Virus record (IMG/VR): IMGVR_UViG_2537561778_000008
Direction: 5' to 3' (one strand)
Source: a virus
Lineage: Duplodnaviria; Heunggongvirae; Uroviricota; Caudoviricetes
DNA length: 51,560 bases
The notes beneath the pieces are model-generated. The model worked only from the letters and a program-made list of their open reading frames with translations, was not told the DNA's origin and did not search any database. Every line of letters begins with the position of its first letter. Position 1 is the first letter of the stretch. Made by a program: the position numbers and the translations under genes. Of this stretch, positions 46,040-49,036 are shown piece by piece.

Positions 46040-47761
46040 TTGGCAGACAATAAAATCACGCTATCCTCGGTCAGGAAGGCGCTGGCGGGGGTTTTTAAAG
46101 ACAACGGAGAACGGGACAACATCCTCCTGTCCGCGCTGGCTGTGCACGGCGGAAGTGGGTATTTGTTTTCTCGCGCAGGGGCACCGGTACAACTGTCCGG
46201 CTTCTTAGGCGGCAAACCGGGCGATAGTGGCATGGCTGGCGATGGGCTGGTGGACGGAAGTCGCTTTATCTTTGATGAAGTTCAACTGCCGGAAGATCGC
46301 TTGCAACGCTATCCGCTACTCGAAGAGATGGCGGTTTACAGCACGATCGCCACCGCGCTGAACATCCATATTACGCACGCGCTCTCTTTCGATAAGAAGA
46401 CCGGACAAACCTTCTCTATCGTGCCGGTACACAACGGAAACGATAGTGACTATGACGCCGCTCAGGCGTTGTGTGACGAGCTGATGAACGACATCGGGCG
46501 AACCATCAACAAAGAGGTCGCCGGGTGGGCATTTATCATGTCTGTATTTGGGGTGGCTTATGTCAGGCCATACGCCAAAGAAGGCATAGGGATCACGTCT
46601 TTTGAGTGCTCCTATTACACCCTTCCGGGCTTCATCAAAGAGTTCGAGGTCAGCGGCAACCTGGCGGGATTTAGCGGCGATTATCTGAAGGACGCGTCAG
46701 GGAAAATGGTTTTCGCCGATCCGTGGGCCATTATCCCTATGAAAATCCCCTACTGGCGGCCTAAGTCAAACCTTATGCCGGTGCACACTGGCCATAAGGC
46801 ATACAGCTTGCTGGATAATCCGGAAGAGCGCACGCCGATTGAAACCCAGAATTACGGGACCAGCTTGCTCGAATACGCTTACGAGCCGTACATGAATCTG
46901 CGTTCAGCGATCCGCTCGCTGAAGGCAACGCGTTTTAATGCGTCGAAAATTGACCGAATCATCGGCCTGGCGATGAATAGTCTGGATCCGGTAAAAGCAG
47001 CCGATTATTCACGCACCATTACTCAGACGCTTAAACGAGCAGCTGATCTGATGGAAAAGCGCGCACGCGGTGCGAATAACATGCCTACGGTGACCAATAC
47101 CCTGCTTCCCATTATGGGCGACGGCAAGGGGCAAATGACGATTGATACTCAGACCATCCAGGCTGACATCAACGGCATTGAAGACATTCTCACCTATATG
47201 CGCCAGCTGGCGGCAGCTCTTGGCCTCGATTACACCCTCCTGGGGTGGGCAGATCAAATGTCCGGCGGGCTTGGTGAAGGTGGATTCCTGCGGACGGCAA
47301 TTCAGGCCGCCATGCGCGCCTCATGGATCCAGCAGGGCGTAGAAGAGTTCATTCAGCGGGCTATCGATATTCATCTTGCTTTCAAGTACGGCAAGGTCTA
47401 CCCGGAAGGTGATCGCCCGTACAAAATCGAATTCCACTCCGTTAATACCGCTCTGCAACAAGAGCACAACGATAACCGCGACTCGCAGGCGAACTACGCC
47501 ACCATCGTTACGCAAATCCTCGATGCCGTCAGCAATAACAGCGTCCTCGCCAATTCCGATGCATTCAAACGTTACCTGTTCAGCGATGTGCTGGAGATTG
47601 ACGAAAAAATCTCTGAAGCACTGGTGAACGAACTGAAAGCTAAAAGCGAGGACGACGATCACCTGATGGATTCCATCATCAAAACACCGCCACAGGAACT
47701 GGCGCAAATCCTTGAATCGGTCTTTAAAGAGGGAAACGATATTGACAATTGTCCGCCATAA
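46040..47761 (+). CDS. prt: Portal protein candidate (P1 Prt position)
   Basis: 573 aa; TTG start with AAGGTG SD; divergent from darB; by synteny. Confidence 0.6.
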
Positions 47762-49036
47762 ACGGCAAACATTCCCAATTCACAGAGTCCGACCTAAACC
47801 ACATGAAGCGGCTTAGGAATTACAGACTCTCCAAGGGCTAACACTGCCAGCCCGGCAGCTTTTATATTACGGGCCGCGTTAATATCACGATCATGCTCTG
47901 CGCCACATTCCGGGCAGTGCCATTTACGAATATTAAGAGGCATTTTTTGCATGGTGAAGCCGCAACTGCTGCAACGTTTGGAAGAAGGGAAATACTGGTC
48001 GATAGCGACAATGCTACGTCCACCCCATTCTCCTTTGTACTGGAGTTGGCGTACAAGTTCGCTCCAGCCTGCGTCAGCTATTGCTTTAGACAGCTTCGGG
48101 TTACGGATCATGTTTTTCACTTTAAGGGATTCGACGCAAACAACTTGGTTTTCGTTAATCAGTTTGCGGGACAACTTATGCAGGTTATCCATCCGACAAT
48201 CGACTATTCTCGCGTGGAGGCGGGCAACCTTTAAACGTGCTTTGGCGCGGTTCTTTGAGCCTTTTTGTTTCTTGCTCAATCTGCGCTGTAACACTGCTAA
48301 TCGCTTCGCGTATTTAGCGTTGTGTCGAGGATTGCCAGTTTTGAAACCGGTATCGGTGACGAACAAATCTTTTAAACCAATATCAATGCCGACCGTGGAA
48401 ACGGTGATCGGCAGTGATACAGGCTCAAACTCGCAGAGACAGGATACAAAATATCGTTCGGCAGCATCCCTGGTGATAGTGACAGTGGATGGAGCAGACG
48501 GCAACGGACGGCTCCAGCGAACATCTAACGGCTCTTTGCTCTTTGCCATGTACAGCTTGCCGTCACGGTATTTAAATGCGCTGGCAGTTAGTTCTGCGGC
48601 CTGTTTATGCCGCTTGCTCTTAAAAACTGGGTATGCAGCACGCCCGGCGAAAAAGTTAGCAAAAGCCGTTTGTTGGTGGCGCAGAGACTGCTGGAGGGGG
48701 ACGCAGGAAACGTCATTCAGCCAGGCGAATTCTGGTTCTTTTTTCAGTGCCGTTAATTTGGCGCTGGCTTGTGCATAGCCGACCCTCTCATGGCGTGCGT
48801 AGTACGCATCGGTGCGCCAGCGAAGGAGGCTGTTATAGACAAAACGCACACACCCAAAAGTCCGGGCTAATAGCTCGGTTTGTTCGGGAGTTGGGTAGAA
48901 TCGATATTTATAGGCACGCTTCATGTTCTATATAATACATTGAAACTAATGAGTATATAAATGAATACACGGACGAAAATGTTATCAAAGCCAATATACC
49001 AACAGACATTAGGTAAGGTAGCTGGAGGGCAATATA
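47762..49036 (-). mobile_element. IS200/IS605-family TnpB-only element inserted between prt and pro (boundaries approximate)
   Basis: TnpB gene fills nearly the whole prt-pro intergenic; no tnpA ORF; only 32 nt separate tnpB stop from prt stop. Confidence 0.6.
47794..48924 (-). CDS. tnpB: TnpB, IS200/IS605-family RuvC-like nuclease
   Basis: 376 aa; N-terminus MKRAYKYRFYPTPEQ; C-terminal zinc finger CSSCGF...CPECGAEHDRDINAARNI. Confidence 0.9.
   Translation of the reverse strand: MKRAYKYRFYPTPEQTELLARTFGCVRFVYNSLLRWRTDAYYARHERVGYAQASAKLTALKKEPEFAWLNDVSCVPLQQSLRHQQTAFANFFAGRAAYPVFKSKRHKQAAELTASAFKYRDGKLYMAKSKEPLDVRWSRPLPSAPSTVTITRDAAERYFVSCLCEFEPVSLPITVSTVGIDIGLKDLFVTDTGFKTGNPRHNAKYAKRLAVLQRRLSKKQKGSKNRAKARLKVARLHARIVDCRMDNLHKLSRKLINENQVVCVESLKVKNMIRNPKLSKAIADAGWSELVRQLQYKGEWGGRSIVAIDQYFPSSKRCSSCGFTMQKMPLNIRKWHCPECGAEHDRDINAARNIKAAGLAVLALGESVIPKPLHVV

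Follow-up and report, generated by a model that had tools for sequence, protein, structure and literature searches.

The record IMGVR_UViG_2537561778_000008 of IMG/VR, a stretch of 51,560 nucleotides (nt) that we call the window throughout, is a segment of a P1-like phage-plasmid with darB, prt, pro and lysozyme genes. Between the portal gene prt and the head-processing gene pro it carries an insertion that encodes TnpB and no other protein. Judged by its protein, its RNA and its ends, the insertion is, with near certainty, a TnpB with its omega RNA in an insertion sequence (IS) of the IS200/IS605, IS1341-like type. We consider it non-autonomous, and most likely retained as an RNA-guided nuclease for homing and retention. 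The copy is best described as defective, a family member by descent in which the nuclease-guide module is kept. TnpB is the ancestor of Cas12. The kind of element is already known, and public annotation calls this one TnpB/ISEc42-like. The insertion and its target are placed as follows.

47742..49036, minus strand: whole TnpB-only IS200/IS605-type (IS1341-like) element, 1295 bp, without target duplication
49037..49040, minus strand: target and predicted target-adjacent motif (TAM) 5'-TCAT (GTCAT when base 49041 is included), the reverse complement of the pro start ATGA

The corresponding site of phage P1 lacks exactly 1295 bp, and the P1 site with these 1295 bp added gives the window exactly. 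A 2.8-kb query across the region found a full-length match in one phage record, vB_EcoM-673R5, which annotates the gene as 'IS200/IS605 family transposase ISEc42'. In P1, P7, RCS47, SJ46 and other P1-like phages, the flanks match as two pieces and the 1295 bp are absent. The prt gene of P1 stops 8 nt past the pro start, giving an 8-nt overlap (ATGACTGA). A first reading of this DNA, made from the letters alone and called here the sequence-only reading, had taken the extra gene for an insertion relative to P1, and the empty site of P1 and its sister phages bears this out. The opposite view, in which the open reading frame (ORF) is a native P1 gene or the junction an assembly artefact, we discard entirely. 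P1, P7 and at least 452 E. coli P1-like records show the 8-nt overlap with nothing between the two genes, so that the empty site is the norm. The same 1295-bp insertion recurs with identical junctions in 37 complete E. coli replicons, an E. albertii plasmid, one phage record and four IMG/VR contigs.

The ends were defined with the help of 79 loci of relatives (37-86% amino acid identity) from Salmonella, Citrobacter, Klebsiella, Serratia (several copies per genome) and Halomonas, with end alignments restricted to those at 69-86%. On the 3' side of tnpB the relatives share ...GTGAAGTGGGAAT, then the hairpin CCTCGCCC-TTTA-GGGCGGGG, then AGCAGTCAA. Their similarity ends abruptly at ...GTCAA, beyond which lies unrelated flank in every relative. 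The window reads ...GTGAATTGGGAATGTTTGCCGTTTATGGCGGACAATTGTCAA/TATCGTTTCCC at this junction (the slash marks the boundary), which together with the family consensus places the right end of the element at 47742. On the other side, TCAT stands directly before the left end of each relative whose junction could be called. The window reads CAGTCAT/TATATTGCCCTCC, and the left end is therefore at 49036, a boundary that rests on both the 1295-bp length difference and the family TCAT junction. A BLAST estimate of 49027 was rejected: the element sequence GGAGGGCAATATAATG resembles GAGGGAAACGATAATG of P1, and the alignment was drawn 9-12 nt into the element. The insertion has no terminal inverted repeats or target-site duplication, lies 3' of a conserved tetra- or pentanucleotide, and consists of a 52-nt right end, tnpB and a 112-nt left end.

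The sequence-only reading had given the element as 47650-49036. The upper coordinate was exact; the lower one lay 92 nt too far to the left, the extra 92 nt being prt sequence that includes the guide described below. It had also stated that tnpB fills most of the prt-pro gap and that tnpA is missing. Indeed, the prt stop (47761) and the pro ATG (49037) are separated by 1275 nt, of which tnpB takes up 1131. The element has no tnpA, a tblastn search with the IS200C TnpA returned no match in the 51.5-kb window, and tnpA is absent between the left end and tnpB in every relative.

47794..48924, minus strand: tnpB, 376 amino acids, ATG start; RuvC residues D181/E265/D347; zinc-finger residues C318/C321/C337/C340

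The protein matches HTH_OrfB_IS605 (PF12323, 1.2e-21), OrfB_IS605 (PF01385, 3.6e-25) and the Cas12f1-like_TNB zinc ribbon (PF07282, 1.1e-23) of Pfam, all above cut-offs, in the order N-terminal HTH/WED, OrfB_IS605 RuvC core, C-terminal zinc ribbon. Among NCBIfam models, guided_TnpB scores 355 bits (cut-off 100), the IS200_TnpB 'exception' model 392 bits, slightly below its cut-off of 425, and the IS607_TnpB model 169 bits. The best natural match among solved structures is the ISDra2 TnpB (8BF8, E = 8.8e-76, residues 3-365). Catalytic residues D181, E265 and D347 align with D191, E278 and D361 of ISDra2, and the zinc ligands C318/C321/C337/C340 with C331/C334/C351/C354. The RuvC and zinc-finger hallmarks that had been read from the letters thus correspond to a D-E-D triad and a CxxC...CxxC motif aligned to ISDra2 TnpB. 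We also considered a TldR, a nuclease-dead regulator derived from TnpB, and rejected it, the RuvC triad and zinc ribbon being intact and the protein full length. The ratio of nonsynonymous to synonymous substitution rates (dN/dS) of tnpB against its relatives is 0.08-0.13, and by this measure the gene is under purifying selection relative to them. Of 8 other P1-borne copies, 7 have an uninterrupted, full-length tnpB ORF, and the exact window protein is found on 207 contigs. In the phage record vB_EcoM-673R5 (ON470615.2), tnpB is frameshifted and prt is annotated as two fragments; the frameshift may be a sequencing error or genuine decay.

Three RNA features lie at the 3' end of tnpB and across the right end.

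47742..47862, minus strand: omega RNA scaffold, minimum extent, comprising the final 69 nt of tnpB and all 52 nt of the right end
47750..47771, minus strand: right-end hairpin UGUUUGCCG-UUUA-UGGCGGACA, helix 9 of the consensus and last stem of the scaffold
47722..47741, minus strand: predicted guide 5'-UAUCGUUUCCCUCUUUAAAG, the first 16-20 nt past the right end, reverse complement of the prt 3' end

For 24 elements, we aligned the 190 nt that lead up to the right end. The RNAalifold consensus has 40 pairs, half of which (20/40) show compensatory double changes. Standard pairing occupies 95.1% of the alignment cells. Column shuffles give 84.0%, with none of 500 attaining the observed value, and sliding the partners by 1-3 columns gives 38-48%; 83 cells are changed on both sides where 22 are expected. 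The covariation is carried by six helices, the right-end hairpin among them. A covariance model of 121 positions, built from 22 relatives with the window excluded, has a single match in the 51.5-kb window, full length at 47742-47862 on the minus strand (117.2 bits, E = 2.3e-31). The strong covariation and this match of a model made from relatives only identify the interval as the omega RNA scaffold. The window RNA folds at -58 kcal/mol (z = -3.4). Compared with the family consensus CCUCGCCC-UUUA-GGGCGGGG, the right-end hairpin is maintained by two-sided changes, and three of its nine pairs are G-U. Such pairing fits selection on an RNA, and not on a TnpA DNA hairpin.

An omega RNA on the minus strand at 47650-47830, with a guide read from flanking prt, was part of the sequence-only reading. 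The covariance model did find an RNA at the 3' end of tnpB and the end of the element, as had been supposed. The interval needs correction, since the true scaffold spans 47742-47862 or longer, and 47650-47830 amounts to the guide plus about half of the scaffold. The proposed source of the guide agrees with the layout: the scaffold runs to the element end and prt adjoins it, giving the predicted guide at about 47722-47741. The same 20 nt follow GTCAT in P1 and in other empty sites. An Rfam scan of 47300-49300 gave no family at threshold and no match to a curated omega RNA family. One sub-threshold match, to RAGATH-18 (RF03064; 47772-47837, minus strand; 21.8 bits against a gathering score of 44.9, E = 0.53), lies over the scaffold's GGAG...UGAA core, and we regard it as a weak, distant resemblance rather than membership.

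The other end of the element presents a different state.

48925..49036, minus strand: left end, 112 nt, of which about 13 nt are family-like; subterminal hairpin absent

Its first 13 or so nt (TATATTGCCCTCC) correspond to the family consensus CAGAATGCCTCC. Relatives from Salmonella to Halomonas have a GC-rich subterminal left-end hairpin of 7-9 bp, so that hairpins at both ends are a family feature, of which the window keeps the right one and misses the left. The DNA of the window left end folds at -2.5 kcal/mol (z = +1.0), against -20.8 kcal/mol (z = -3.2) for the Gifsy-1 relative. A 29-mer from the left end matched no metagenome contig and three IMG/VR sequences, all in P1 context, and in the plasmid and E. 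coli collections a search for another genomic context or a donor found only P1-context copies above 86%. Every copy at or above 98.8% identity sits at the prt/pro site, with no copies at a second site. Relatives at 80-86% are multi-copy in Serratia and Klebsiella. Because tnpA is missing and the left-end hairpin is lost, the present activity of the element is most likely not transposition, and the window copy is probably immobile. A neighbouring mobile-element gene was seen elsewhere: in plasmid p50579417_1 (NZ_CP033882.1), which itself carries the insertion, an IS200C-type tnpA lies between pro and the lysis genes (positions 4972-5430 of the locus extracted from it), where the window has none.

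IS605 TnpB cuts DNA in which a TAM adjoins a match to its guide, and there is precedent for TnpB as a homing nuclease (PMC10055086, PMC10690162). We propose that the element entered an ancestral P1-like phage-plasmid in a single event of single-strand 'peel and paste', 3' of TCAT on the minus strand. Transcripts running on into prt would gain the guide UAUCGUUUCCCUCUUUAAAG, if expression and processing proceed as in the work on ISDra2 and Geobacillus IS605. The resulting complex should cut GTCAT followed by TATCGTTTCCC..., that is, the uninterrupted prt/pro junction of sister P1-like genomes. Its own locus should escape, as the guide-matching flank there follows TCAA and not the TAM; the left-end sequence that does follow the TAM at the own locus matches the guide at only 8 of 20 positions. 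In a cell holding both an insertion genome and an empty one, the empty allele would be cut and recombinational repair would copy the element in. We put the chances that the TnpB-omega RNA complex acts on the empty site of P1 at about even.

The insertion lies inside the late operon, as the sequence-only reading had noticed, between prt and pro and directly before the pro ATG, in antisense orientation. The possible effect on pro expression that this reading mentioned can be stated more precisely. The affected features are the following.

46040..47761, plus strand: prt (portal protein), 573 amino acids instead of 569, with the last codons and the stop inside the element
49037..50056, plus strand: pro (head processing), ORF intact and uncoupled from prt
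49024..49029, plus strand: GGAGGG, new Shine-Dalgarno sequence of pro on the strand opposite the element's left end, at 7 nt from the ATG

The last two codons of prt and its stop are gone, and the C-terminus of Prt changes from EGNDND* to NDIDNCPP*; the new stop TAA (47759-47761) falls within the right-end hairpin loop. The insertion destroys the prt/pro overlap, by which translation of the two genes may be coupled in uninterrupted phages. The native Shine-Dalgarno sequence of pro (GAGGG) is displaced by 1.3 kb, and Pro would be translated from the GGAGGG borne by the element. The insertion is tolerated, we suggest, because the pro ORF is untouched, Prt is altered only at its last residues, and the left end provides GGAGGG.

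Terminator-like hairpins are enriched around the insertion: the interval 47500-49200 holds 10, where 1.9 +/- 1.5 are expected, and eight are on the plus strand, the coding strand of the late operon, opposite to tnpB. Of the ten, only two recur in the Gifsy-1 and E. coli relatives, at 47844-47858 (the antisense of an omega RNA stem) and at 48719-48737. A scan for sigma-70-like promoters, inward and outward, gave sites at chance frequency. One of these promoter-like sites, at 48932-48961 on the minus strand, ends about 8 nt before the tnpB ATG, would give a leaderless-looking transcript, and has similar counterparts in relatives; it too occurs at chance frequency. A plus-strand TTTATA-18-TATAAT at 48907-48936 faces pro, and its frequency is that of chance for an AT-rich stretch.

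The position at pro is not peculiar to the window. Of 30 informative independent insertions of relatives, 25 have an ORF of 60 to more than 460 amino acids that starts at the ATG provided by the reverse-complemented TCAT. These ORFs point away from the element and often have typical N-termini (signal peptides, MiaB-like starts). The flank past the right end, which would serve as guide, commonly holds a reverse-complemented Shine-Dalgarno sequence in relatives, and in the enterobacterial subgroup the left end reads GGAGGC or GGAGGG 7-8 nt before the ATG. The layout seen at pro is found also at E. coli ybhB (GGAGGCATTCTAATG) and at Gifsy-1 gpU. From these alignments, the lineage is one that lies antisense between genes and their ribosome-binding sites, with an enterobacterial subgroup that supplies a replacement GGAGG. 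The placement may reflect target preference, survivorship, or both. At the level of the family, it can be read as an IS lineage adapted to landing on start codons (TAM TCAT = ATGA) and to giving the displaced gene a new Shine-Dalgarno sequence. Our search of one literature library returned no account of a TCAT TAM, of start-codon targeting by TnpB elements, or of the P1 insertion.

This antisense position raises the question of whether the element has been domesticated for a function other than homing, either as a GipA-like factor or as a regulator of the late operon acting through antisense RNA or DNA binding. Any transcript of tnpB or the omega RNA would pair along its full length with the late prt-pro mRNA. 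The encoded protein shares 84% identity with GipA of Gifsy-1, which occupies the equivalent antisense position before the gpU start codon. One source gives the window protein itself the name GipA, and EMD03215.1, a member of its 90% cluster, is named 'Peyer's patch-specific virulence factor GipA, transposase-like protein [Escherichia coli]'. Against such a role, all nuclease residues are kept, unlike those of the exapted TldR regulators, and the guide matches only the flank of the element's own right end, without a TAM. The relatives are multi-copy and mobile in Serratia and Klebsiella, so the family as a whole is selfish, and nothing in the present analysis bears on virulence. We hold domestication to be highly improbable, and return to the nuclease as a homing and retention device in considering its distribution.

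Among complete E. coli genomes, 452-453 of 492 junction records are empty and 37 have the insertion (98.8-100% identity), always at prt/pro. PLSDB contains 24 plasmids from E. coli and E. albertii at 99% or above; the next best match is at 85.8%, in Citrobacter. We measured diversity within the insertion class on six good-quality copies. For prt, the element and pro, nucleotide diversity amounts to 1.50%, 0.65% and 1.36%, respectively. Third codon positions alone give 3.8% for prt, 1.0% for tnpB and 3.8% for pro, about 3.7-fold lower for the element. The flanks are undifferentiated between insertion and empty classes (1.45-1.50% between classes, 1.25-1.54% within). No flank single-nucleotide polymorphisms (SNPs) specific to insertion-carrying copies were found, and SNP patterns are mosaic to within 100-350 nt of the element in both classes. 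The lower diversity of the element and the undifferentiated flanks indicate that it is younger than the polymorphism of the flanks and has spread by recombination at one site. Since the flank phylogeny shows the same mosaicism in both classes, it does not separate homing from ordinary recombination.

The predicted target, GTCAT followed by TATCGTTTCCCTCTTTAAAG, is exact in P1 and in many other empty sites. Over 76 nt, 261 of the 453 E. coli empty sites show no difference from P1. Some 28-42% of empty sites deviate from the target, and all characterised variants lie in the TAM or the seed. An unbiased sample of IMG/VR junctions, anchored in pro, has the following alleles.

Canonical target: 63
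GAT>GAG (target position 2): 21 (of 88 empty sites, 24%)
CAGT (positions 3-4): 2
GGA>GAA (position 9): 2
Insertion present: 3

The 36 nt upstream of position 9 are invariant across these alleles. In E. coli, all five of the single-mismatch records sampled have the GAG allele, which is probably present in about 40% of E. coli empty sites; one sampled double-mismatch record combines a change at position 4 (CAAT) with a TAM change from TCAT to CCAT (ATGA>ATGG). From about 75 nt upstream of the empty junction (90 without singletons) to 45 nt downstream, the only polymorphisms are in the TAM or at target positions 2-9. All of the TAM and seed changes are nonsynonymous in prt. Common SNPs outside the TAM-plus-seed window across 1.2 kb comprise 70 synonymous and 6 nonsynonymous changes (Fisher p = 0.009, with only two inside events counted). 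The SNP density of the 13-nt TAM-plus-seed window is not significant by count or by summed allele frequency, in a test where one indel-shifted sequence inflated the background; the comparison of synonymous with nonsynonymous changes was the more informative one. Variation confined to TAM and seed is the pattern expected of escape from a nuclease, and we treat it as a possible lead and not as a result. That homing or an arms race shapes the population pattern is accordingly a tentative suggestion on our part. A homing-only selfish module, no longer able to transpose and maintained by cutting the empty junction of competing P1-like phage-plasmids and being copied into them, with the TAM and seed polymorphisms as natural escape alleles comparable to the protospacer-adjacent motif (PAM) and seed escapers of CRISPR, is a possibility of similarly modest standing.

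The principal competing explanation is an inert passenger: a stranded, harmless insertion whose TnpB and omega RNA are unexpressed or inactive in P1 and which has spread by ordinary recombination. Several observations lean this way and weigh against a working nuclease. The insertion is present in only about 8% of E. coli P1-like plasmids, which gives no sign of efficient drive, and the fine mosaicism of the flanks with and without it means that ordinary recombination could have placed the element on diverse flanks without a nuclease. Its left end is degenerate, and the tnpB of vB_EcoM-673R5 is frameshifted. The window TnpB has a G156E change (codon 48457-48459) at a position that is glycine in all relatives, in the other examined P1-borne copies and in ISDra2, and the substitution could impair the protein. 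Among P1-borne copies, tnpB has 12 synonymous and 11 nonsynonymous variants, a ratio near 0.3 that indicates weaker constraint than across the family. The target variants fall in the last five codons of prt, and this tail of Prt may simply be unconstrained. The sense-strand hairpins make polarity on pro possible, and the insertion may be mildly harmful rather than neutral. Furthermore, we read the TAM from insertion sites, and cleavage and homing are steps that we infer.

Other observations are not what an inert passenger would lead one to expect. The ORF is intact in 7 of the 8 other copies, and the exact protein recurs on 207 contigs. The right-end hairpin has been maintained by compensatory changes while the left-end hairpin was lost, as expected under selection on the RNA. 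Nonsynonymous polymorphism limited to TAM and seed is left unexplained by an inert passenger, unless the Prt tail is unconstrained. On this evidence we consider an inert passenger unlikely, and retain an RNA-guided homing and retention nuclease as the probable function of the element.

With respect to neighbouring genes, the window has the following arrangement around the prt-element-pro block.

39197-45964, minus strand: darB
50348-51004, minus strand: lysozyme gene

In the E. albertii plasmid p06-3542 the same block is found in another neighbourhood, with no darB upstream, and with an antirepressor and an icd-like gene downstream in place of the lysis genes.

A homing role of TnpB, by which transposons are kept in place, has been shown in laboratory systems, and natural cases that can be read from population data are scarce. 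The P1 case offers a single fixed site, a tractable phage, hundreds of occupied and empty alleles, and a guide and target predicted to the base, and the TAM and seed variants of the target can be tested directly as escape alleles. It also explains why about 8% of P1-like plasmids have an 'extra' gene and a portal protein with a different C-terminus, and illustrates how an element that separates a gene from its ribosome-binding site can stay silent by bringing its own site. For specialists, the interest lies in start-codon placement with a donated Shine-Dalgarno sequence, in the loss of transposition signals from an element that keeps its guide module, and in the TAM and seed polymorphism of the empty site. 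If the proposed mechanism is true, the case would amount to evidence from the field for an RNA-guided arms race among sister phages; should the proposed activity fail, the element would be one more stranded IS copy.

Compared with known systems, the nearest named relatives of the element by sequence are ISEc42 of E. coli and gipA of Salmonella Gifsy-1 (80-86%). The name ISEc42 comes from GenBank annotation, and the closest E. coli copies outside P1 show only about 81% DNA identity; the window element is presumably too divergent to be ISEc42 by the usual ISfinder criteria. The chromosomal InsQ/TnpB copy of E. coli between bioA and ybhB (about 81% nucleotide and 86% amino acid identity) has the same TCAT target and the same Shine-Dalgarno-bearing left end, which beyond its first 13 nt is unrelated to that of the window. 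The Gifsy-1 gipA, in a Salmonella prophage, is likewise TnpB-only and encodes 376 amino acids (84% amino acid and 80% nucleotide identity). It lies antisense in the prophage late operon with its left end abutting the gpU start codon, as the window element does at pro, and its omega RNA scaffold is conserved. Unlike the window copy, it keeps a 9-bp GC-rich left-end hairpin, and it differs in phage, site and guide. GipA is reportedly a Peyer's-patch-specific virulence factor.

The TnpB of ISDra2 from Deinococcus radiodurans (8BF8/8EXA/8H1J) has the same domain order, RuvC triad and zinc finger as the window protein. In both elements the scaffold overlaps the 3' end of tnpB and stops at the right end, the guide comes from the flank, and a target of 4-5 nt lies 5' of the left end. 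However, ISDra2 has tnpA and hairpins at both ends and is autonomous, whereas the window element has neither tnpA nor a left-end hairpin. The TAM of ISDra2 is TTGAT, and that predicted for the window, (T)TCAT, differs from it. IS608 of Helicobacter pylori has tnpA, the target TTAC, subterminal hairpins and a right end in TCAA. It shares with the window element insertion 3' of a fixed tetranucleotide, the lack of a target duplication and the TCAA right end; the window element differs in having TCAT as target, in having no tnpA, and in the loss of the left-end hairpin.

The RAGATH-18-derived right-end element RNA has been reported only with TnpBs of the IS607 family, where the RNA lies wholly downstream of the ORF, a further 64-nt motif precedes the guide, and the TAM is G-rich (PMC11061315). 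In the window, by contrast, the scaffold overlaps the ORF and ends 30 nt past the RAGATH-18-like motif. Finally, the homing endonucleases of T-even phages offer a functional analogy only, that of a nuclease between essential late genes that would cut the allele without it in a co-infecting relative and be copied in by repair, with no sequence relationship; recognition by the window element is predicted to differ from theirs in being guided by RNA.

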